In this document: piece after piece, positions 558 through 11,429 of the stretch
Position numbering within the stretch: the first letter of the stretch is position 1
Layout: the number at the start of each line of letters is the position of its first letter
DNA from: a virus
Virus genome (UHGV): UHGV-1560016
Strand: one strand, 5' to 3'
DNA: 11,429 nt
Notes under the pieces: generated by a model
Databases searched by the model: none
Told to the model about the DNA's origin: nothing
The model's input: the letters and a program-made list of their open reading frames with translations, nothing else
Translations under genes and position numbers: made by a program

Positions 558-585
558 ATTATGTATCTCAAAGGTACATTGTCAA
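558..585 (-). promoter_or_regulatory. Candidate sigma70 promoter directing leftward transcription (PL-like): -35 TTGACA, 16-nt spacer, -10 CATAAT, overlapped by operator-like repeats
   Basis: Minus-strand TTGACA is the complement of 580-585 and CATAAT the complement of 558-563, with a 16-nt spacer (564-579). GGTACATT is directly repeated at 553-560 and 573-580. The palindrome TACAT-T-ATGTA at 555-565 overlaps the -10. Confidence 0.45.
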
Positions 586-586
586 G

Positions 587-613
587 TATAAAAAAACCTG
601 CCGAAGCAGGTTC
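587..613 (-). terminator. Intrinsic terminator of the repressor gene
   Basis: A 7-bp stem (595-601 AACCTGC pairing 606-612 GCAGGTT) with a 4-nt loop reads on the minus strand as stem, UUCG loop, stem, then a U-run (complement of the A-run at 590-596). It lies 11 nt downstream of the repressor stop at 625-627. Confidence 0.6.
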
Positions 614-624
614 ATAAACATTGA

Positions 625-1299
625 TTAGGCTTTGATTTTGTATCTTCTTGGTTTTCCTGAGAAAATCACTGTGCCAATTATAGAGCAATTACCGTTGATC
701 TTAATGTAAGGCTCAGGCCAGTTTGGGTTTAACGCTTTGAGATAACGCTGTGTCCCATCTTCTATCAACCTTTTGAAGGTGGTTTCGCCTGTATCGTGCA
801 TCAATGCAATAACGTCGTCACCGTGGCAGGCAGGTACTTCAGGATCGACAAAAATCATGTCTCCCGGGCGGTACTCATCAATCATTGAATCACCTATCAC
901 CCGCAAGATATAAGTCATTTCCCCACAGGGTACAGGGCAGGGATACGTTTCTGCTGTGCTCAAATCAACCTCAGAATATCCAACTTCTTTCCATGCTCCG
1001 GCCTGTACCCATGATATGACAGGGACTAATGTGATTTGTTTATTAGTGATTGAAACATCAGGTTTTTTTGTGATGTTCGTTGTCTGGTGTTCTTGATCGA
1101 GCCATCCGACAGGCAGGTCGAAACATTTTTCGATGTGTCGTGCCATGCTGTCACCGATATTTTTAGTAGCACCATCCCCCATAAACCTGCTGGTCTGGGT
1201 TGGCTCGCGATCAATCATAGTGGCAAAGGAAGAATTCCCGCCAACACCATCTCTCAGTTTTCTGGCGTTAGACCGCCGGATGTCATGGATTGTTTTCAT
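625..1299 (-). CDS. Phage CI/LexA-like repressor with C-terminal S24 autopeptidase domain (224 aa)
   Basis: The C-terminal half carries the S24 signature GDSM (IGDSMIDEY, nucleophile Ser) and a downstream KRL (TFKRLIEDG, general-base Lys), with LexA-like spacing. The N-terminal ~70 aa are basic and typical of a DNA-binding domain. It is divergent from a Cro-like gene and followed by its own terminator. The 224-aa size matches what I recall for e14 CohE (unverified). Confidence 0.88.
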   Translation of the reverse strand: MKTIHDIRRSNARKLRDGVGGNSSFATMIDREPTQTSRFMGDGATKNIGDSMARHIEKCFDLPVGWLDQEHQTTNITKKPDVSITNKQITLVPVISWVQAGAWKEVGYSEVDLSTAETYPCPVPCGEMTYILRVIGDSMIDEYRPGDMIFVDPEVPACHGDDVIALMHDTGETTFKRLIEDGTQRYLKALNPNWPEPYIKINGNCSIIGTVIFSGKPRRYKIKA

Positions 1300-1315
1300 A
1301 ACGAAATTAAAACCC

Positions 1316-1334
1316 TTGTACCGTTAAGGTACAA
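1316..1334. promoter_or_regulatory. Operator candidate: perfect 7-5-7 inverted repeat TTGTACC-GTTAA-GGTACAA
   Basis: The arms 1316-1322 and 1328-1334 are exact reverse complements. It lies 17 bp upstream of the repressor start codon in the divergent intergenic region. Confidence 0.5.
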
Positions 1335-1339
1335 GTATC

Positions 1340-1367
1340 TTGAAGGTTCATTTCAATCATGTAATAT
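1340..1367 (+). promoter_or_regulatory. Candidate rightward promoter (PR-like) for the Cro-like gene: -35 TTGAAG, 16-nt spacer, -10 TAATAT
   Basis: TTGAAG at 1340-1345 and TAATAT at 1362-1367 with a 16-nt spacer. GGAGG RBS at 1375-1379 and ATG at 1390. Confidence 0.45.
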
Positions 1368-1387
1368 GTACACCGGAGGTACATATT
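1363..1387. promoter_or_regulatory. Operator candidate: 9-7-9 perfect inverted repeat AATATGTAC-ACCGGAG-GTACATATT overlapping the -10 and RBS of the Cro-like gene
   Basis: The arms 1363-1371 and 1379-1387 are exact reverse complements (checked base by base). It shares the GTACA core with the repeats at 553-580 and 1316-1334. Confidence 0.55.
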
Positions 1388-1389
1388 GT

Positions 1390-1704
1390 ATGAAAGCGTA
1401 TTGGGACTCTTTAACCAAAGAACAGCAGGGCGAGTTGGCCGGAAAAGTTGGCTCAACACCTGGCTACTTACGGCTGGTTTTCAATGGCTATAAAAAAGCC
1501 AGTTTTGTGCTGGCTAAAAAACTTGAGCAATGCACGTCAGGTGCAATTACGAAATCTGACTTAAGACCGGATACCCGCCAGCAGGATGATCTGAACAGTC
1601 TGGATGAACTGCAAACGCTGGCGATTGATGTTGATTATCTCGAGCCCGGTAACGGGCCTGACGGCGATATCGAACATCACACCGAAATAACCCTTCCTTC
1701 CTGA
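1390..1704 (+). CDS. Cro/YdaS-like helix-turn-helix regulator (104 aa) with an acidic C-terminal extension
   Basis: ATG at 1390 with GGAGG 10 nt upstream. The N-terminal segment LAGKVGSTPGYLRLVFNGYKKASFVLAKKLEQCTSG resembles phage Cro/YdaS-type HTH proteins. It is divergent from the repressor. The longer track ORF 1087-1704 overlaps the repressor antisense and is not the true start. Confidence 0.7.
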   Translation: MKAYWDSLTKEQQGELAGKVGSTPGYLRLVFNGYKKASFVLAKKLEQCTSGAITKSDLRPDTRQQDDLNSLDELQTLAIDVDYLEPGNGPDGDIEHHTEITLPS

Positions 1705-1875
1705 GGATCCTCATGTTTGTCAAACCTGTTAAAGGGCGTTCCTGACCCTGCCCGCGGCGACCTTTTGCCCGCCGAAGGGCGAAATGTTGACGAGAACAAC
1801 TACTGGCTGCGCCGTGAAGTAGCGGGTGATATCCGGCGCGTGAATAAAAAGGTGAATACCGATGACGAGCTTTAA
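1705..1875 (+). other. Start-less open frame (56 codons) ending at a TAA that overlaps the sheath start; possible 3' remnant of the ancestral gene preceding the sheath gene
   Basis: Frame 1 is open from just after the Cro-like TGA (1702-1704) to TAA at 1873-1875 with no ATG. The only candidate start is TTG at 1717 with no RBS. Its stop overlaps the sheath ATG (1862) in the manner of translationally coupled phage genes. Confidence 0.25.
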
Positions 1876-3355
1876 CACCATTCCGTCGAATACGCTGGTT
1901 CCGCTGTTTTATGCGGAAATGGATAATCAGGCGGCGAATACTGCACAGGACAGCGGAGCATCGCTGCTGATTGGTCATGCCAATAACGGTGCAGAGATTG
2001 TTGCCAACAGTCTGGTACTGATGCCGTCGGCAGACTATGCACGCCAGATTTGTGGTGCGGGAAGTCAGCTGGCGCGTATGGTCGAGGCTTATCGCCAGAC
2101 CGACCCGTTTGGCGAGCTATATGTGATTGCCGTTCCTGAATCCACGGGCGCGGCGGCAACGGTTACGCTGACGGTGACCGGCGCGGCAACCGAAACCGGC
2201 ACGGTGAATGTTTATGTGGGACGTACCCGCGTGCAGGCACCGGTGACCAACGGCGATAACGTTGCGACGATTGCCAGCAGTATCCAGGATGCCATCAATG
2301 CCGTTCCGACCCTGCCGTTTACTGCCTCATCTTCGGCAGGCGTGGTCACACTGACCGCGCGTCATAAGGGGCTTTGCGGGAATGAAATTCCTGTCAGCCT
2401 CAATTACTACGGCTTTGGTGGGGGCGAAGTGCTGCCAGCGGGCGTACAGATTGCCGTGGCGACGGGTACCGCCGGAACGGGCGCTCCGGTTCTCACCGGC
2501 GCGGTGGCTGCAATGGCGGATGAGCCGTTTGATTATATCGGCCTGCCGTTCAACGACACAGCCTCCGTTAACACGCTGGTGACCGAGATGAACGATACCA
2601 GCGGTCGCTGGAGCTATGCGCGTCAGCTGTATGGTCATGTGTATACGGCAAAGATCGGCACGCTGTCAGAACTGGTGACCGCAGGTGACCAGTTTAACCA
2701 GCAGCACATTACCCTGGCGGGATACGAAAAAGAGACCCAGACGCCTGCCGACGAGCTGGCGGCAAGCCGTACCGCCCGCGCAGCGGTGTTTATCCGCAAC
2801 GATCCGGCACGTCCCACGCAGACCGGTGAGCTGGTGGGTATGCTGCCTGCGCCGAAGGGGAAACGGTTCACGATGACCGAACAACAGACCCTGCTGTCTC
2901 ATGGCGTGGCAACGGCGTGTGTCGAAAGCGGGGTGCTGCGCATTCAGCGTGATGTCACCACGTACAGGAAAAACGCTTACGGTGTTGCGGATAACAGCTA
3001 CCTCGACAGCGAGACGCTGCATACCAGCGCGTATGTGCTGCGCAAACTGAAATCCGTCATTACCAGTAAGTACGGGCGTCACAAGCTTGCCAGCGACGGT
3101 ACCCGCTTTGGTCCCGGTCAGGCGATTGTCACACCGGCGGTGATCAAAGGGGAACTGCTGGCAACCTACCGTCAGCTTGAGCGTGCGGGGATCGTGGAAA
3201 ACTACGAACTGTTTAAGCAGTACCTGGTTGTGGAGCGTGATGCCAGCGATCCGAACCGCCTGAACACGCTGTTCCCGCCTGACTATGTTAACCAGTTGCG
3301 TGTCTTTGCCGTGGTTAACCAGTTCCGTCTTCAGTATTCAGAGGAGTCTGCATAA
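1862..3355 (+). CDS. Contractile tail sheath protein (Mu gpL-like, 497 aa)
   Basis: A 497-aa ORF immediately upstream of, and coupled to, a 118-aa tube gene (TAATG overlap at 3353-3357), followed by chaperone and tape measure genes. This is the size and order of myovirus sheath genes. GAGGAG RBS for the next gene is embedded in its 3' end. Confidence 0.85.
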   Translation: MTSFNTIPSNTLVPLFYAEMDNQAANTAQDSGASLLIGHANNGAEIVANSLVLMPSADYARQICGAGSQLARMVEAYRQTDPFGELYVIAVPESTGAAATVTLTVTGAATETGTVNVYVGRTRVQAPVTNGDNVATIASSIQDAINAVPTLPFTASSSAGVVTLTARHKGLCGNEIPVSLNYYGFGGGEVLPAGVQIAVATGTAGTGAPVLTGAVAAMADEPFDYIGLPFNDTASVNTLVTEMNDTSGRWSYARQLYGHVYTAKIGTLSELVTAGDQFNQQHITLAGYEKETQTPADELAASRTARAAVFIRNDPARPTQTGELVGMLPAPKGKRFTMTEQQTLLSHGVATACVESGVLRIQRDVTTYRKNAYGVADNSYLDSETLHTSAYVLRKLKSVITSKYGRHKLASDGTRFGPGQAIVTPAVIKGELLATYRQLERAGIVENYELFKQYLVVERDASDPNRLNTLFPPDYVNQLRVFAVVNQFRLQYSEESA

Positions 3356-3711
3356 TGGCCCGTATCGGGGGAACCTGTTATTTCAAAATTGACGGTCAGC
3401 AGCTATCGCTGACCGGCGGCATTGAGGTGCCCATGAACAGGACGGTCAATGATGACATCATCGGCCTGGACGGTTCAGTGGACCGCAAGGAAACTCACCG
3501 TGCGCCCTATGTCAAAGGGACCTTCAAGGTGCCGAAGAATTTTCCGGTGAACAAAATCACCTCGTCTGATGAGATGACCATCACTGCCGAGCTGGCGAAC
3601 GGTCAGGTCTATGTACTGTCGTCTGCCTGGCTGCACGGCGAAGCGAACCATAATGCCGAAGAAGGCACGGTTGATCTTGAGTTCCACGGTGAAGAAGGGG
3701 ATTACCAGTGA
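3355..3711 (+). CDS. Tail tube protein (Mu gpM-like, 118 aa)
   Basis: ATG at 3355 overlaps the sheath stop, with GAGGAG 8 nt upstream. Size and position between sheath and chaperone/tape measure fit a tube protein. Confidence 0.82.
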   Translation: MARIGGTCYFKIDGQQLSLTGGIEVPMNRTVNDDIIGLDGSVDRKETHRAPYVKGTFKVPKNFPVNKITSSDEMTITAELANGQVYVLSSAWLHGEANHNAEEGTVDLEFHGEEGDYQ

Positions 3712-4031
3712 TTGAGCTTGTACTTAAAAAACCGATCATCGCCCACAAAGAAACACTGCATGTGCTGGAAATACGTGAGCCTACGTATGACGAGATTGAG
3801 GCGCTGGGGTTCCCTTTCTCTGTTTCACCTGATGGTGGTATGAAAATGGACAGTCAGGTAGCGCTGAAATATATCCCGCTTCTGGCCGGGATCCCGCGCT
3901 CGTCTGCAGCGCAGATGACGAAGCTGGATATTTTCAAGGCAGGCATGATTGTAATGCGTTTTTTTACCGGCTTGGAGACGGAAGAGACCTCCGGAAGCGA
4001 TTCTACAATGTCGCGTGGTTCTGGAAATTAA
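3708..4031 (+). CDS. Tail assembly chaperone, short form (107 aa, GTG start)
   Basis: GTG at 3708 overlaps the tube TGA (GTGA). It sits between tube and tape measure and contains a T7 slippery run leading into a -1 frame extension. Confidence 0.72.
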   Translation: MIELVLKKPIIAHKETLHVLEIREPTYDEIEALGFPFSVSPDGGMKMDSQVALKYIPLLAGIPRSSAAQMTKLDIFKAGMIVMRFFTGLETEETSGSDSTMSRGSGN

Positions 4032-4123
4032 ACCCCCTTGAACTTCGCCGGACGGCTATTTCCCACTTTGCTGATCTGGAGGCAGAGGCCGTCCGTATAA
4101 ATGAGGAGATGAAGCATGGCTGA
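3708..4123 (+). CDS. Tail assembly chaperone, long form made by programmed -1 frameshift at TTTTTTT (3959-3965); predicted about 139 aa
   Basis: Zero-frame codons cgT-TTT-TTT-acc give a T_TTT_TTT heptamer. The -1 frame is open from 3833 (after TGA at 3830-3832) to TGA at 4121-4123, which overlaps the tape-measure ATG (4116). This is the G/GT-type arrangement conserved in tailed phages. Confidence 0.6.
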
Positions 4124-6023
4124 TAATTTTCAGCTGAAAGCCATCATCACCGCCGTTGACAGGCTGTCCGGCCCGCTTAAAGGTATGCAGCGTCAGCTTA
4201 AGGGGTTTCAGAAAGAAGTCTCCAGCCTTGCTCTGGGCGCTGCCGGGGCGGGTACTGCAATAATGGGGGCACTGGCACTCCCTGTAAAATCAGCCATCAC
4301 CCTTGAATCGAAGATGGCTGATGTCCGCAAAGTGGTAGACGGTCTGGATACGCCGGATGCGTTTAAGGCCATGACGGAGCAGGTACGCGCTTTGTCTACT
4401 GAGCTTCCCATGTCTGCAGACGGGATCGCGGAAATTGTGGCGGCTGGCGGTCAGGCCGGGATTGCACGTGATGAACTGATGCAGTTTGCCACTGATGCGG
4501 TGAAGATGGGCGTGGCCTTTGATACCACGGCTGAAGAGTCCGGGCAGATGATGGCCCAGTGGCGTACTGCGTTTAATATGACGCAGGATGAAGTGGCCGG
4601 GCTGGCTGACAAAATCAACTACCTTGGTAATACCGGCCCGGCGAATGCGAAGAAAATCTCCGATATTGTTACGCGTATTGGTCCTTTAGGTGGTGTTGCA
4701 GGTGTGGCTTCCGGCGAAATCGCGGCAATGGGGGCAACCATTGCCGGGATGGGCGTGGAGTCAGAAATTGCCGCCACAGGGATCAAGAACTTCATGCTTT
4801 CCCTGACCGCGGGAAATTCCGCGACAAAATCGCAGAAACAGGCATTACGTTTTCTGCGGATCAATCCGAAGAAATTAGCTGCTGATATGCAGAAAGATGC
4901 CCGGGGAACCATGCTGTCTGTACTGGATGCGATGGCTAAAGTGCCCAAAGAAAAACAGGCAGCTGTGCTGAATGCCCTGTTCGGGAAAGAGTCTCTGGGC
5001 GCGATAGCACCTCTGCTGACTAACCTTGATTTGTTGCGTACCAACTTCAGGCGGGTTGCGGATTCCCAGCAGTATGGCAGTTCGATGCAGAAGGAATATG
5101 CTTCGAGGGCAGCGACGACGGAAAACCAGCTTTTACTTCTGCAAAATCAACTTGATGCCATTTCTTCCACGCTGGGGGAAACGTTTCTTCCTGAGGTTAA
5201 TGATGGTCTTGAAGAGGTAAAACCGCTCCTTGAGGAAGTGAGAACGTTTGTCCGTGAAAACCCGGAGCTCGTTAAGACCATTGCTAAAATCGGTCTGGCC
5301 TTACTGACGGTGGGAGCCGCTGCAGGCTCTTTGTCCAGAATTATGAAAGTTCTCGGCGGTGTGATGAATATGACGCCTGCTAAGGGGCTGATTGCTCTTC
5401 TGGTTGGTGGCGCTTACCTCATTATTGATAACTGGGAAACCGTAGGTCCTGTCATAAAAAAAGTCTGGCACGTGGTGGATGAAACGGCGCAGGCGATGGG
5501 GGGATGGGAAACTGTTCTGAAAGCGATTGCCCTGTTTATGGCAACCAAATGGGTTGCTGACGTTACCAAATCCATTACCGCAGTGACCAGAGAGATGCGT
5601 ACGCTGGGGAAGGTATCGGCAGAAACGGGATTGATGGGGAAAGGCCGCGGCTTTATCGGGAAGGCCGGGGTATATGGTTTTCTGGGAACCCTGATGTATG
5701 AGCCGGTTAAAGATACTCTGGAAAGTGTTGTTCCTGAAGATACGGTTAACTGGCTGGATAATAAAGGGCTGTTTCTGGCTTCAGACTGGACGCCTTTTTT
5801 TGATCGTAAAGAGTACGAGCAGTATCAGGCCAGCCTGAGTCAGTACAAACCCAATGTTCCGCTGTTGAATCCATCTTCTTCCATGACACAGCACAGCGAG
5901 CTGAAAGTCACGTTCGAGAATGCTCCGCCAGGTATGAAGATAATTGATGTACCGGGCAAAGCCGATCCCCTGATGAAAATCACGCACGATGTGGGGTATT
6001 CCCCTTTTCGTTTTCCACGATAA
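4116..6023 (+). CDS. Tail tape measure protein (635 aa)
   Basis: Largest ORF in the operon, directly after the frameshifted chaperone pair. It has Gly/Ala-rich hydrophobic segments (e.g. LALGAAGAGTAIMGALALPV, GPLGGVAGVASGEIAAMGATIAGMGV) typical of tape measure proteins. Confidence 0.88.
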   Translation: MADNFQLKAIITAVDRLSGPLKGMQRQLKGFQKEVSSLALGAAGAGTAIMGALALPVKSAITLESKMADVRKVVDGLDTPDAFKAMTEQVRALSTELPMSADGIAEIVAAGGQAGIARDELMQFATDAVKMGVAFDTTAEESGQMMAQWRTAFNMTQDEVAGLADKINYLGNTGPANAKKISDIVTRIGPLGGVAGVASGEIAAMGATIAGMGVESEIAATGIKNFMLSLTAGNSATKSQKQALRFLRINPKKLAADMQKDARGTMLSVLDAMAKVPKEKQAAVLNALFGKESLGAIAPLLTNLDLLRTNFRRVADSQQYGSSMQKEYASRAATTENQLLLLQNQLDAISSTLGETFLPEVNDGLEEVKPLLEEVRTFVRENPELVKTIAKIGLALLTVGAAAGSLSRIMKVLGGVMNMTPAKGLIALLVGGAYLIIDNWETVGPVIKKVWHVVDETAQAMGGWETVLKAIALFMATKWVADVTKSITAVTREMRTLGKVSAETGLMGKGRGFIGKAGVYGFLGTLMYEPVKDTLESVVPEDTVNWLDNKGLFLASDWTPFFDRKEYEQYQASLSQYKPNVPLLNPSSSMTQHSELKVTFENAPPGMKIIDVPGKADPLMKITHDVGYSPFRFPR

Positions 6024-6047
6024 CGCAGTCCTTTTTGAGGTCAGTCT

Positions 6048-7424
6048 ATGGATTTATCCTCATTTCCCACCCGACCTTCATTACTTTCGTCGTCTTCAGG
6101 CTGGCGTGACAGACTTCAGGACGCGTCATTTCGCGGCGTGCCGTTTAAGGTTGAAGAAGAAAGTGCGGGAACCGGTCGCCGTGTGGAAACACATGAATAC
6201 CCGAACCGCGACAAACCCTATACCGAAGACCTGGGGAAAATCACTTTTCGCTCGTCCATCACGGCTTATGTGGTGGGAGATGACTGCTTTGACCAGCGCG
6301 ATCGCCTGATTGACGCGCTGAATAAACCCGGTCCCGGCACGCTTGTCCATCCGACATACGGTGAGCTGAAAGTCTGTGTTGACGGAGAAGTTCGGGTCAG
6401 CACATCGAAGAGTGAAGGGCGTATTGTCCGCTTTGACCTGAAGTTTGTCGAAGCGGGAGAACTCTCTTACCCCACTTCAGGTGCGGCGACGGCGCAGACG
6501 CTGATGTCATCCTGTTCTGCACTGGATGACTGCATCAGTGACAGCTTCAGAGGTTTCAGTATCGATGGCGTGGCGGATTTCGTGCAGAACGACGTCGTTG
6601 GTAATGTCAGCACAATGCTTGGGTATGTTTCTGATGCGATGAAAGTGGTGGATTCTGCCGTATCGGATGCTGCCAGGCTGTTGCAGGGGGATATCTCGGT
6701 ACTTCTGCCGCCACCATCGTCAGGCAAAAATCTCGTTGAGCAGGTGCAGAAAATGTGGCGTACCGGGAAACGCCTTTATGGTAACGCCAGCGACCTGGTC
6801 ACCATGATCAAAACGCTTTCCGGTGTCAGCCTCGGCAGCGATCTGCAACCGCGCGGCGTCTGGAAAACGGACAGTAAAACCACCGCCACGGCTACGCAGC
6901 AGCGTAATGTGGTTGCCAGCACCCTTCGTACGACCGCAATCAGTGAAGCGGCGTATGCCGTCACCCGATTGCCTGCGCCAACAACTTCCGCGGTGATGCA
7001 GAATTCCGCAGTGGGGCAGGCAACAACACCTGCGCAGAGCACTGGCTGGCCTTCCGTCACGCATCCGGCACTGAACAATGCACCGGCGGTGAAAAACACG
7101 GTTGACCTGCCGACGTGGGAAGAACTGACTGACATTCGCGACACACTGAATACGGCAATTGATAAGGAGTTGTCCCGTACAACCAGTGATGCGCTGTTTC
7201 TGGCGCTGCGCCGGGTGAAAGCAGATCTGAATGCGGATATCAACACGCGCCTTGAACAGTCTGCACGGATCATTCAGCGCACACCGGATGAGGTTTTACC
7301 CGCGCTGGTGCTGGCGGCGACCTGGTTTGATAACGCGGCGCGTGACGCGGACATTATCCGGCGTAATGCCATTACGCATCCCGGCTTTGTGCCGGTGATC
7401 CCTCTGAAGGTGCCAGTGCAATGA
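6048..7424 (+). CDS. Mu gp43/N-like protein (DNA circularization protein N family; baseplate hub component), 458 aa
   Basis: ATG at 6048 with GAGG 7 nt upstream. The N-terminal region (FRGVPFKVEEE...GRRVETHEYPNRDKPYTEDLG) matches my recollection of the DNA_circ_N domain of Mu N-like proteins. Position right after the tape measure fits. Confidence 0.75.
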   Translation: MDLSSFPTRPSLLSSSSGWRDRLQDASFRGVPFKVEEESAGTGRRVETHEYPNRDKPYTEDLGKITFRSSITAYVVGDDCFDQRDRLIDALNKPGPGTLVHPTYGELKVCVDGEVRVSTSKSEGRIVRFDLKFVEAGELSYPTSGAATAQTLMSSCSALDDCISDSFRGFSIDGVADFVQNDVVGNVSTMLGYVSDAMKVVDSAVSDAARLLQGDISVLLPPPSSGKNLVEQVQKMWRTGKRLYGNASDLVTMIKTLSGVSLGSDLQPRGVWKTDSKTTATATQQRNVVASTLRTTAISEAAYAVTRLPAPTTSAVMQNSAVGQATTPAQSTGWPSVTHPALNNAPAVKNTVDLPTWEELTDIRDTLNTAIDKELSRTTSDALFLALRRVKADLNADINTRLEQSARIIQRTPDEVLPALVLAATWFDNAARDADIIRRNAITHPGFVPVIPLKVPVQ

Positions 7425-8500
7425 ACGACAATGTCACGCTACGGGTAAATGGCCGGGAGTGGAATGGCTGGACATCGGTGCGCATCGGTGCCGGTATTGA
7501 ACGGCTGGCGCGGGATTTCAGTGTGGAGATCACCCGCCAGTGGCCGGGAGATGAGGGTATCACCACGCTTCAGCCGCGCATTAGAAACGGTTCAAAAGTG
7601 GAAGTGCTGATTGGTGATGAGCTGGTGATCACCGGCTGGGTGGAGGCGACTCCCGTTCGTTACGATGCCCGTTCGGTCAGCACCGGTATTGCCGGACGTA
7701 GTCTGACGGCTGACCTGATTGACTGTGCAGCCGAACCGACACAGTTTAACGGACGCTCGCTGGTGCAGATTGCGCAGGCGCTTGCTGCGCCTTTCGGCAT
7801 TGAGGTGGTGAACAGCGGTGCGCCGTCGGGTGTTATTCCTGATGTTCAGCCTGATCACGGTGAAACGGTGATTGAGGTAATCAACAAAATACTCGGTCAG
7901 CAGCAGGCACTGGCTTACGACGACCCGCACGGCAGGCTGGTGATTGGCGGTATTGGCTCAACGCGGGCACATACCGCGCTGGTACTTGGGGAAAACATCC
8001 TTTCCTGCGATACGGAGAAGAGTATCCGGGAGCGGTTTTCTGTTTACCAGGTGGCGGGGCAGCGTGCCGGAAACGACGATGATTTCGGTGAGGCCACCAC
8101 CACCGCGCTGCGGGCCCGCACAGAGGACGCATTTATTGCCCGTTACCGTCCGATGTATATCAGGCAGACAGGGCAGGCCACGGGGGCAGGCTGTATTGCG
8201 CGTGCTGACTTTGAAGCCCGACAACGGGCGGCGCGGACGGATGAAACCACTTATGTGGTGCAGGGCTGGCGACAGGGTAACGGTACGCTGTGGCAGCCCA
8301 ACCAGCGGGTGATTGTCTTCGATCCGGTCTGTAGTTTCGACAATACCGAACTGCTTGTTTCGGAAGTCACGTTTACTCAGGACCAGAACGGCACCCTGAC
8401 GGAAATCCGTGTCGGCCCGCCTGATGCTTATCTGCCTGAACCCGAAGATCCCGGCGTGCGGAAAAAGAAAAAAGCCAGAGTACAGGAGGACCCGTTCTGA
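7421..8500 (+). CDS. Baseplate hub protein (Mu gp44/P-like), 359 aa
   Basis: ATG overlaps the stop of the preceding gene (ATGA at 7421-7424). Size and position between the N-like and spike genes fit the Mu-like order. Confidence 0.75.
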   Translation: MNDNVTLRVNGREWNGWTSVRIGAGIERLARDFSVEITRQWPGDEGITTLQPRIRNGSKVEVLIGDELVITGWVEATPVRYDARSVSTGIAGRSLTADLIDCAAEPTQFNGRSLVQIAQALAAPFGIEVVNSGAPSGVIPDVQPDHGETVIEVINKILGQQQALAYDDPHGRLVIGGIGSTRAHTALVLGENILSCDTEKSIRERFSVYQVAGQRAGNDDDFGEATTTALRARTEDAFIARYRPMYIRQTGQATGAGCIARADFEARQRAARTDETTYVVQGWRQGNGTLWQPNQRVIVFDPVCSFDNTELLVSEVTFTQDQNGTLTEIRVGPPDAYLPEPEDPGVRKKKKARVQEDPF

Positions 8501-9048
8501 TGAGGGCGATTGAAGCCATGCAGCGACAACTCCTCGGCCTGATTGGGCGGGCAGTGGTGAAAAGCATCAGTGCCGCCACGAAATGTCAGACCGTGGATGT
8601 GTCCCTGATTGCCGGTGAACCCAAAGCCGGGGTTGAACATCTTGAACCCTACGGTTTTACCGCAAGGGCAAACAGCGGTGCGGAAGCGGTGGTGTTGTTT
8701 CCGGATGGCGACCGTTCTCATGCGGTGGTTGTTACGGTGTCGGACCGGCGCTACCGCCTGAAAGGGCTGCAGACGGGTGAGGTGGCTGTCTATGACGATC
8801 AGGGGCAGTCCGTGACGCTGGCCCGGGAGGGGATCGTGGTGGACGGTGCAGGTAAAACGATCACGTTTCGCAATGCGCCTAAGGCACGTTTTGAAATGGA
8901 CCTGGAAGTGACCGGACAGGTGAAAGACCTGTGCGACTCCACCGGCACCACCATGTCAGCGATGCGGCTTGCCTATAACGGGCATCGTCACAGAGAGAAC
9001 GGTCAGGGCAGTAACACCGACAAACCTGATAAAGCGATGGAGGCATGA
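8500..9048 (+). CDS. Baseplate central spike / assembly protein V-like (Mu gp45-like), 182 aa
   Basis: TGATG overlap with the upstream gene and AGGAGG at 8484-8489. Size and position fit gp45/gpV-type spike proteins. Confidence 0.75.
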   Translation: MRAIEAMQRQLLGLIGRAVVKSISAATKCQTVDVSLIAGEPKAGVEHLEPYGFTARANSGAEAVVLFPDGDRSHAVVVTVSDRRYRLKGLQTGEVAVYDDQGQSVTLAREGIVVDGAGKTITFRNAPKARFEMDLEVTGQVKDLCDSTGTTMSAMRLAYNGHRHRENGQGSNTDKPDKAMEA

Positions 9049-9473
9049 TGGAACTGTGGCTGACGGTGAACGGTAAACGCACCTGCGCCAGCGCACAACT
9101 GGATCCGCTGACCCGCGCCGTGGTGATTTCCCTGTTTACCTGGCGGCGGGCGGAGCCTGATGACAACGCCGACGTCCCGATGGGATGGTGGGGGGATACC
9201 TGGCCTGCGGTACAGAATGACCGTTACGGCTCCCGACTGTGGCTGCTTCAGCGCAGCAAACTGACCAATCAGCTGGTGCAGACGGTAAGGGGGTATATCC
9301 GCGAATGCCTGCAATGGATGATTGATGACGGCGTGGTGTCCCGTATTGATCTGGATATCCGCCGCACCGGGATTAATGAACTGGGTAACAGTATCACTCT
9401 CTGGCGTCGTGACGGACCGGTAATGATTTCTTTTGATGATCTGTGGAGTGCGATAACGCATGGCGGACAGTGA
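9045..9473 (+). CDS. Baseplate protein of the GP46 family (Mu gp46-like, T4 gp25-like wedge), 142 aa
   Basis: ATGATG start overlaps the upstream stop (start may be 9045 or 9048), with GGAGG at 9039-9043. Size and order fit. Confidence 0.75.
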   Translation: MMELWLTVNGKRTCASAQLDPLTRAVVISLFTWRRAEPDDNADVPMGWWGDTWPAVQNDRYGSRLWLLQRSKLTNQLVQTVRGYIRECLQWMIDDGVVSRIDLDIRRTGINELGNSITLWRRDGPVMISFDDLWSAITHGGQ

Positions 9474-10518
9474 ATTTCAGCGCCCGACGCTGGCAGAAAA
9501 TATCAGTATGCTCCGTAACGATTTATTCGCCAGGCTGGACGTCAGCGACACGCTCCGGCGCATGGATGAAGACGTGCGGGCAAAGGTGTATGCGGCGGCG
9601 CTGCATACGGTTTACGGGTACATCGATTATCTGGCAATGAACATGCTGCCTGACCTGTGCGATGAGTCCTGGCTGGCGCGACATGCTGCGATGAAACGGT
9701 GTCCGCGCAAGGGGGCCACGGCTGCCAGCGGGTATATGCGCTGGGAAGGTGTCAGCGATGGCCTGAAGGTGACCGCCGGGAGTGTTATTCAGCGCGATGA
9801 CCTGGTTCAGTACACGGCAACTGCCGATGCAACCAGCTCCGGTGGTGTCCTGCGCGTGCCGATCGCCTGCTCAAGTTCAGGCGCGGTCGGTAACGCTGAC
9901 GACGGTACGTCATTAATCCTGGTCACGCCGGTGAATGGTCTGCCGTCTTCCGGTGTGGCTGACACCCTGACAGGCGGATTTGATACTGAAGATCTGGAAA
10001 CGTGGCGCGCCCGCATCATTGAGCGGTATTACTGGACGCCGCAGGGCGGGGCTGACGTGGACTATGTCGTCTGGGCTAAAGAAGTGCCCGGCATTACCCG
10101 CGCATGGACATACCGTCACTGGATGGGAACGGGAACTGTCGGTGTGATGATTGCCAGCAGTGACCTGATTAATCCCATTCCGGAAGAATCAACGGAAACG
10201 GCGGCAAGACAACACATTGAGCCACTGGCCCCGGTGGCAGGCTCTGATTTGTATGTATTCAGGCCGGTGGCGCATAAAGTGGATTTTCATATCCGCGTGA
10301 CGCCGGACACACCGGAAATACGGGCTGCCATCACCGCCGAGTTGCGTTCGTTCCTGCTGCGTGATGGTTATCCGCAGGGAGAACTGAAGGTATCGCGTAT
10401 CAGTGAGGCGATTTCCGGTGCGAACGGGGAATACAGCCATCAGTTGCTTGCCCCGGCGGACAATATCTCCATTGCAAAAAATGAACTGGCGGTTCTGGGG
10501 ACGATTTCATGGACGTGA
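9460..10518 (+). CDS. Baseplate J-like protein (Mu gp47-like), 352 aa
   Basis: Start overlaps the upstream gene by 14 nt. Size and order match baseplate J-family proteins in Mu-like and P2-like tails. Confidence 0.8.
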
Positions 10519-11093
10519 CAAACGATGATTACATCCGCCTGTTATCGGCACTGTTGCCGCCCGGTCCTGCATGGTCAGCCAGCGATCCGGCGATTGCCGG
10601 TGCGGCACCTTCATTAACCCGCGTTCATCAGCGTGCGGATGCCCTGATGCGGGAGCTGGATCCGCGCACCACCACTGAACTGATAAACCGCTGGGAGCGT
10701 CTGTGCGGTCTGCCGGATGAATGTATTCCCGCAGGGACACAGACCCTTCGCCAGCGTCAGCAACGACTGGATGCGAAGGTTAACCTGGCGGGCGGCATCA
10801 ACGAGGATTTTTACCTTGCACAGCTTGCTGCCCTGGGCAGACCAGACGCTACCATCACGCGATACGACAAAAGCACGTTCACCTGCTCATCGGCCTGTAC
10901 TGACGCGGTGAATGCGCCGGAATGGCGGTATTACTGGCAGGTCAACATGCCAGCCGCCACCAACACCACCTGGATGACATGTGGCGATCCCTGTGATTCC
11001 GCACTGCGTATCTGGGGCGACACCGTTGTCGAGTGCGTGCTTAACAAACTCTGCCCGTCGCATACCTACGTAATTTTTAAATATCCGGAGTAA
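10509..11093 (+). CDS. Baseplate/tail protein, Mu gp48-like (DUF2313/YmfQ-like), 194 aa
   Basis: Start overlaps the upstream gene by 10 nt. Size and position (after baseplate J, before tail fibre) fit. Confidence 0.75.
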
Positions 11094-11096
11094 TCC

Positions 11097-11429
11097 ATGC
11101 ATCGTATAGACACGAAAACCGCGCAGAAGGATAAGTTCGGCGCGGGTAAGAACGGTTTTACCCGTGGTAACCCCCAGACTGGCACGCCTGCCACCGATCT
11201 GGATGATGACTACTTTGACATGTTGCAGGAAGAACTTTGTAGCGTGGTGGAGGCATCCGGTGCCAGTCTGGAGAAGGCGCGGCACGACCAGCTGCTTACC
11301 GCGCTTCGTGCGCTGCTGTTAAGCCGCAAGAATCCGTTTGGCGATATCAAATCGGATGGCACGGTGAAAACGGCTCTCGAAAACCTTGGTTTGGGAGAAG
11401 CCAGATATATCATTCAGCGAGGAGCTAAT
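11097..11429 (+). CDS. Tail fibre protein, N-terminal part only (3' end lies outside the window)
   Basis: ATG at 11097 with GGAG at 11087-11090. The frame is open for 111 codons to the window end. It follows the gp48-like gene, where Mu-like and P2-like modules place the fibre gene. Confidence 0.7.

Follow-up and report, generated by a model that had tools for sequence, protein, structure and literature searches.

The analysed stretch of DNA (the window, 11,429 nt) is identical to the ENA metagenome scaffold ERZ28597165 scaffold_2048 (labelled L006) and contains three blocks: a leftward repressor gene, a rightward 104-aa ORF, and a Mu-like tail module that begins at position 1862 (Table 1). 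The flanks are E. coli chromosome (100% identity). BLAST against complete E. coli genomes named the left block as the ymfK/ymfT immunity region of the e14 family and the right block as tail terminator, DUF2635, sheath and tube genes, and none of these genomes covered the two blocks contiguously. As an intact reference we used the prophage of the SfV/e14 type located at thrW/proA in E. coli D1 (the D1 prophage). This family combines a lambdoid immunity region and Q-dependent late control with a head of the HK97 type and a contractile tail like that of Mu. Positions 1556-11401 are 98.1% identical to SfIV and 97-98% identical to SfV, SfI and SfII, all serotype-converting phages of Shigella flexneri; the tail match starts at exactly 1556 in all 55 matching phage records. 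SfV is also 98.4% identical to the window at 1-1573 (cI/operator/cro), and its tail genes orf9-orf22 (96-98% identity) have the same order, with the terminator (orf9), DUF2635 (orf10) and sheath (orf11) genes at the start. No integrase or att site lies in the window itself; the near-identical sibling loci L003-L005 are located at proA/thrW with an integrase.

Table 1. Positions of the features in the window and, in the last row, of the second deletion in sibling loci.
Feature	Position	Strand	Basis or remark
PL-like promoter TTGACA-16-CATAAT, 11/12; operator 562-578 between the hexamers	558..585	-	promoter scan
Intrinsic terminator-like hairpin and T-run just past the ymfK stop	594..613	-	scan
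ymfK/cohE (SfV cI), LexA/CI-type S24 autoprotease repressor, 224 aa	625..1299	-	Peptidase_S24, E = 1.5e-26 (Pfam)
OR-like operator region; TGTAC-N7-GTACA 17-mers at 1317-1333 and 1367-1383, degenerate copy at 1334-1350	1317..1383	.	
PR-like promoter candidate TTGAAG(1340)-16-TAATAT(1362), 8/12	1340..1367	+	lenient scan
Native ymfT/croE (SfV cro), codons 1-61, predicted HTH kept	1390..1573	+	100% identity to D1 ymfT
Deletion junction in imperfect microhomology	1556..1573	.	
Tail terminator (SfV orf9), last 43 codons and stop, in frame with ymfT	1574..1704	+	
DUF2635 (Mu gp38-like, SfV orf10), frameshifted	1713..1875	+	alignment with relatives
Tail sheath, 497 aa, intact	1862..3355	+	comparison with relatives and D1
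Tube	3355-3711	+	Pfam families; frame intact
Tail assembly chaperone	3708-4031	+	Pfam families; frame intact
Tape measure	4116-6023	+	Pfam families; frame intact
DNA circulation protein	6048-7424	+	Pfam families; frame intact
Baseplate hub gpP	7421-8500	+	Pfam families; frame intact
gp45	8500-9048	+	Pfam families; frame intact
gp46	9048-9473	+	Pfam families; frame intact
gp47/J	9460-10518	+	Pfam families; frame intact
gp48/YmfQ	10509-11093	+	Pfam families; frame intact
Tail fibre, 5' part, continues past the window end	11097..11429	+	
Region with the second deletion in sibling loci	L007:10314-10520, L008:3773-4131, L009:8056-8244		

The repressor YmfK is 100% identical to that of D1 and matches SfV cI. 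Its sequence motifs include an Ala100-Gly101 cleavage pair, Ser138 (in GDSM) and Lys176. Copies of the palindrome TGTAY-N7-GTACA lie at 562-578, 1317-1333 and 1367-1383 (five matches on both strands, compared with 0.01 expected), and the operator region coincides with the 'putative operator region' of SfV (26377-26445). The PR candidate falls under the 9/12 threshold of the scan tool, yet it is the best pair of its interval, and its placement suggests that it is flanked and overlapped by the operators. The rightward genes of e14 (SfiC/ymfM) are SOS-inducible independently of LexA and are thought to be controlled by CohE (bioRxiv 10.1101/2020.11.19.390815). Because of the operators, the autoprotease motifs of YmfK and this literature on e14, we infer with good grounds that PR is derepressed in the SOS response. 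A literature search covering DUF2635, cohE/croE and the mapping of e14 promoters yielded nothing of use.

Two further promoter-like arrangements lie around ymfK. On the minus strand, 542-613 has a PL-like organization with a degenerate operator copy at 542-560, and the promoter faces an ORF at 156-473 (98-105 aa, PHROG 3195) to which no function is assigned. A possible PRM-like promoter for ymfK, TTGTAC-17-TTTAAT, was recognized by eye at 1296-1335 on the minus strand, under the operator at 1317-1333. Only 6 nt separate its end from the ATG at 1299, and the repressor mRNA would thus be leaderless or nearly so. The cI mRNA of lambda is likewise leaderless.

The tail module is free of internal stops at 3355..11093, and over about 9.5 kb a single nonsynonymous change separates it from D1. 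A Shine-Dalgarno (SD) sequence belonging to the sheath gene itself, AAGGTG, lies 8 nt 5' of the ATG at 1862, as read from the sequence. An 85-nt gap (4032-4115) separates the chaperone ORF from the tape measure start. Such a gap is the usual site of a frameshift-extended product of the tail assembly chaperone.

The ORF at 1390-1704 had been taken as a Cro-like gene in the first-pass annotation. It is instead an in-frame fusion of ymfT with the tail terminator gene that arose from a deletion. The chimera of 104 aa consists of residues 1-61 of YmfT/Cro, whose native form has 66 aa, and the last 43 residues of the tail terminator, which has 186 aa when intact. Positions 1-1573 are 100% identical to the ymfK-ymfT side of D1, and 1556-3400 correspond to its terminator-DUF2635-sheath side except for three positions in the junction repeat and a 5-bp gap. 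The chimera matches PHROG 35 ('transcriptional repressor') with E = 8e-13, and its YdaS score in Pfam is 20.1 bits (E = 5.7e-4), compared with 25.1 bits for native YmfT, both under the cut-off of 30; RefSeq names native YmfT a YdaS family HTH protein. PHROG 5122 aligns with chimera residues 60-103 and, in the intact terminator, with residues 79-185. Nothing is left of the Pfam Phage_tail_terminator domain, which spans residues 3-135 of the 186.

The distance from the start to the stop codon of the chimera is 315 bp in the window and 19,220 bp in D1; therefore, 18,905 bp are missing. The junction lies in a 16/18 direct repeat (CTGACTtAAGACcgGATA in ymfT and CTGACTgAAGAC--GATA in the tail terminator gene), which has exact stretches of just 6, 5 and 4 nt, and the two copies are 18,907 bp apart in the D1 prophage. 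The k-mer CTGACTTAAGACCGGATACCCGCCAGCAGG can serve as a marker of the junction. Short-homology (illegitimate) deletions were reportedly described in lacI by Albertini et al. in 1982, and the deletion in the window similarly ends in a short imperfect direct repeat. The D1 prophage contains 87 exact 12-mer pairs and 2,751 12-mer pairs with at most one mismatch. Because these 2,751 pairs are as good or better, the junction repeat is not an obvious hotspot.

The missing interval, as read from D1, begins with ymfL, ash, replication genes, PerC-type regulators, RusA and a Q-family antiterminator. It continues with a methyltransferase, holin, GH24 endolysin and LysC, followed by HNH, both terminase subunits, portal, protease and major capsid protein genes, and ends with the connectors, the Neck1/tail-completion protein (PHROG 879) and most of the terminator gene. 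SfV has the same layout, with an annotated Q, downstream terminators and S/R/Rz/Rz1. Because Q, the lysis cassette, the terminase and the HK97-like head genes are all in the missing interval, the element is defective. Head and packaging genes are absent from the window. Lysis genes were sought in the window up to 11429, D1, SfV and the fully sequenced small remnant L008. None is present in the window or after the tail genes of D1 or L008, and those of D1 and SfV are located solely in the deleted interval. In summary, the window lacks, relative to SfV, SfIV, SfI, SfII and the thrW prophages, everything from cro codon 61 to the last 43 codons of orf9, and its orf10 is frameshifted.

The stretch at 1705-1861 had been described as a 157-bp spacer. 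This description does not hold; the stretch is a broken small gene of the late operon, DUF2635, and not an intergenic region. This gene precedes the sheath gene in all relatives, and its orthologue in SfV (orf10) is annotated as 'similar to phage Mu GP38'. It starts with the ATG at 1713, preceded by an SD sequence GAGGA (1703-1707), and the stop codon of the relatives (TAA) corresponds to 1873-1875, overlapping the sheath start by 14 nt. In the window, the loss of 5 bp (GGTCA after 1737) causes a frameshift with a premature stop at 1743-1745, and no uninterrupted DUF2635 ORF is present before the sheath gene. The ORF from ATG 1713 reads MFVKPVKGRS and then stops, the +1 frame runs on as VPDPARGDLLPAEGRNVDENNYWLRREVAGDIRRVNKKVNTDDEL before its stop, and 116 nt are left untranslated ahead of the sheath ATG. 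The intact orthologue of D1 matches PF10948 with E = 1.2e-15 (57.4 bits, cut-off 26.6). A 52-aa ORF opening at TTG 1717 covers most of DUF2635 from about residue 12 (phrog_208, E = 3.5e-18). D1 and all other contigs with the junction have an uninterrupted gene (55-58 aa), and only the contig of the window has it broken. The 5-bp deletion was seen in one metagenome contig from two samples and could be an assembly error.

The first-pass annotation was correct in finding neither a promoter nor a terminator at 1705-1861. Consensus scans returned no promoter-like or terminator-like site on the plus strand. In a lenient scan, the best sigma-70 pair was 7/12 (TTGTCA at 1717 with a 2/6 -10), no -10 was better than 2/6 at any allowed spacing, and no usable promoter remained. 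The hexamer TTGACG at 1787-1792, singled out earlier as a -35 without a usable -10, indeed has only 1/6 candidates at spacings of 15-17 bp. There is no hairpin followed by a U-run, and the sole T-run is TTTT at 1763. The predicted RNA fold is no more stable than that of shuffled sequences (z = -0.03) and no Rfam family matches, and a structured RNA or riboswitch was rejected on these grounds. In D1 and SfV, the equivalent DNA lies downstream of at least 20 co-oriented late genes after the Q gene. Such signals are not expected in this DNA, which comes from within a long late operon under antitermination.

Consensus scans are blind to activator-dependent promoters, and the stretch offers two good -35-like hexamers, TTGACG (1787) and TTGTCA (1717). 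A cryptic, non-consensus or activator-dependent promoter at 1705-1861, driving the tail genes independently of PR, is nevertheless scarcely credible, given the poor -10 hexamers at all allowed spacings. The same DNA is mid-operon coding sequence in intact phages, and no activator of the Mu C or Ogr type is annotated in the intact relatives D1 and SfV. We therefore rejected the idea of a late activator or cryptic promoter, since a usable -10 is absent and the intact relatives use Q antitermination.

Upstream of this stretch, weak terminator-like hairpins occur at 1460-1477 and 1485-1501 in the native ymfT part. Their frequency is no higher than in shuffled sequences, and they are also present in intact phages, where transcription from PR must continue into ymfL. 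Further downstream, terminator-like sites on the plus strand are weak (for example, at 5161, 6757 and 7816) and occur at the frequency expected by chance (11 found, 10.4 ± 3.5 expected).

These features suggest how the remnant may have formed and how it may work. The 18,905-bp deletion, with its ends in a short imperfect repeat, joined cro codon 61 to the last 43 terminator codons, and the tail genes would now be a 3' extension of the PR transcript. YmfK would bind the 17-bp operators at 1317-1383, and its SOS-induced autocleavage would derepress PR, so that RNA polymerase could proceed across the chimera and what remains of DUF2635 to the sheath gene and onward. Reading the tail genes from PR after SOS is a reasonable expectation from the order of these elements. 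Because Q and the Q promoter region are deleted, read-through from PR is the only evident route of tail gene transcription. The expression would probably be modest and transient because the polymerase is not modified by Q and the predicted HTH of Cro is retained. Such a polymerase may read through inefficiently over distances above 10 kb, and the chimeric Cro, with its HTH kept, may shut PR down again.

The tail genes might even be effectively silent, with the PR transcripts ending or being shut off ahead of the sheath gene or shortly past it by Cro feedback, by Rho acting on the untranslated DUF2635 remnant, or through the missing Q modification, in which case the new arrangement would have no regulatory consequence. 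We regard this as rather unlikely. Both Q and the Q loading site are deleted, 116 nt are untranslated before the sheath ATG, and the HTH region is kept in the chimeric Cro, all of which are consistent with silence. However, an intrinsic terminator is undetectable at 1390-1861, the downstream candidates are at chance level, and the sheath gene has its own SD sequence. Moreover, an untranslated stretch of 116 nt is short for Rho loading.

The first-pass annotation had also reasoned that, if the tail genes are read from PR, repressor cleavage would switch on tail production directly, without a late activator. The premise of read-through is supported: the tail genes lie directly 3' of PR, no recognizable terminator or promoter intervenes, and Q is deleted. 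The design implied by the second half is not. The arrangement is the scar of the 18,905-bp deletion. None of 5,426 complete E. coli genomes has the junction, the window has lost the terminator and all lysis genes, and the tail is itself deleted in the siblings L007-L009. The placement of the tail genes under PR is an accident of deletion and not an evolved circuit.

The alternative that the window represents a domesticated R-type tailocin, in which a headless tail has been selected under direct control of an SOS-cleavable CI-type repressor with no late activator, deserves consideration because the tail and baseplate genes are intact throughout, from sheath to gp48, the head and packaging genes are absent, and an S24 repressor with its operators lies immediately upstream. 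In these respects the window resembles R-type pyocins and R-tailocins, which have a contractile tail set without head genes beside an S24-type SOS-sensitive repressor. R-pyocins retain a gpU-like tube/sheath terminator and their own holin/lysin cassette, use the PrtN activator under the PrtR repressor, and occupy fixed chromosomal loci. In contrast, the terminator and lysis genes of the window are deleted, an activator is absent, and the locus is rare.

The terminator of contractile tails forms the face that binds the head, and it caps and stabilizes the tube and sheath (PMC10457771). In the window it is cut to 43 C-terminal residues without the Pfam domain, and Neck1 is lost. The holin, endolysin and spanin are in the deleted interval, with nothing lysis-like 3' of the tail genes in D1 and L008. 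Because both the tail terminator and the lysis genes are gone, a working tailocin is unlikely, and an element that also lacks Neck1 is unlikely to yield stable, released, killing particles. The tail genes are near-identical to those of the intact prophage, so that their intactness probably reflects youth rather than purifying selection. The occurrence of the junction on three backgrounds and at two chromosomal sites (described below) could reflect selection; against this, it is missing from the complete E. coli genomes as well as from IMG/VR, JGI metagenomes and GTDB representatives, L007-L009 are tail-less, and DUF2635 is broken in this contig. Taken together, we consider a domesticated tailocin very unlikely. 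A paper on an E. coli ST131 'tailocin' (PMC9205054) concerns a P2-like prophage and was set aside as not relevant.

A related possibility is an accidental one-step circuit from SOS to the tail, that is, a tailocin caught at birth and favoured on three haplotypes at two att sites, which appears highly improbable to us. The junction could have been favoured for removing lethal functions (the division inhibitors ymfL/ymfM, lysis and replication) while keeping immunity and an inducible tail. [quoted passage not shown] The 43 residues encoded at 1574-1704 are the terminator C-terminus, corresponding to this sheath-contacting segment, and by analogy the segment fused to Cro might still cap sheaths.

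Independent assemblies from ENA and Logan contain the exact 104-aa chimera on 16 contigs (the cluster table counts 11), and a variant differing at three residues is on one or two further contigs (E. coli run SRR8310848); NCBI lists this variant too, as E. coli protein EEV6091117.1. The junction is thus present on ~17 metagenome or isolate contigs in total, compared with at least 1,000 contigs for native YmfT. Among the 5,426 complete E. coli genomes, 1,946 match a query of window 600-3400, covering the repressor, cro and sheath region, yet none has the junction. It is also absent, including alternative resolutions of the repeat, from the GTDB representative genomes, IMG/VR and JGI metagenomes.

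Because the window is a metagenome scaffold and both sides share an 18-bp near-repeat, we considered whether the assembly had wrongly joined two parts of one prophage. The identical junction occurs in 10 loci from different samples in ENA and Logan assemblies, and it is also found in the E. coli run SRR8310848, with its 104-aa product deposited at NCBI. In addition, the exact stretches in the near-repeat appear too short to mislead an assembler. An assembly artefact, rejected here because the junction is on independent contigs, is exceedingly improbable.

The loci with the junction fall into three haplotypes. The first comprises the window and L003-L005 and equals D1 on both sides; L003-L005 occupy the proA/thrW attachment site with the same integrase as their relatives of the SfV type. 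The second comprises L007-L009 (10 SNPs on the left and one on the right), in which the same junction lies at icd, the e14 site, alongside the integrase, pin and mcrA of e14. These loci have lost the whole tail module in a second deletion, which joins DUF2635 at its 3' end (after AAAAAGGTGAA, corresponding to window 1856) to a tail-fibre-assembly gene and creates a 58-aa DUF2635 variant. The third is L015 (L015:3008-3540, Logan SRR8310848), with nine SNPs on the left and SNPs of the SfV type rightwards from window 1590. Its junction is at the same position on an SfV-type haplotype, with the three amino acid differences in the terminator part of the chimera; it encodes a DUF2635 protein of 56 aa and a sheath of 498 aa, and its tape-measure region differs.

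Taken alone, a simple one-time recent deletion does not account for these three haplotypes. In L015, either the deletion recurred or recombination carried it right up to the junction. The repeat is ordinary, yet its junction is found on three haplotypes. Because the repeat is unremarkable, independent recurrence at exactly this pair is improbable a priori, and recurrent deletion at a hotspot is unlikely. We favour a single origin and later homologous exchange with homoimmune DNA of the SfV type, either co-resident or incoming, in which the conversion tracts run up to the heterology boundary.

The remnants differ from the intact prophage by zero to one substitution per tail gene. The single nonsynonymous change from D1 in about 9.5 kb indicates that the deletion is very recent, and the intact tail ORFs are for this reason uninformative on selection. 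Decay is ongoing, as L007-L009 have lost the tail. Considering all these observations, the window is very probably a recent deletion derivative of an E. coli temperate prophage of the SfV/e14 family, produced by ordinary prophage decay. It is a fresh instance of a well-known kind of object, the deletion-derived defective prophage.

This reading corrects an annotation trap, in which a chimeric ORF and a frameshifted small gene mimicked a regulator followed by a promoter-less spacer. It also provides a base-resolved example of how one deletion puts late structural genes under a repressor-controlled immediate-early promoter and simultaneously removes the killing functions, and rewiring of this kind has been proposed as a step in prophage domestication. 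The element is otherwise ordinary (rare, young and decaying further) and raises no new regulatory or mechanistic question.

A comparison with e14 of E. coli K-12 illustrates another outcome of decay. It has the same repressor/cro module (ymfK and ymfT in RefSeq) and the same family of tail genes (ymfQ corresponds to gp48), and it is also a defective remnant shaped by internal deletions. Its gene list runs cohE/ymfK, croE/ymfT, ymfL, ymfM ... jayE, ymfQ, stfE, pinE and mcrA. In K-12, ymfT is presumably intact and followed by ymfL and ymfM, whereas the genes from sheath to baseplate are presumably lost. The window is the opposite case, with the early genes gone and the tail genes retained.
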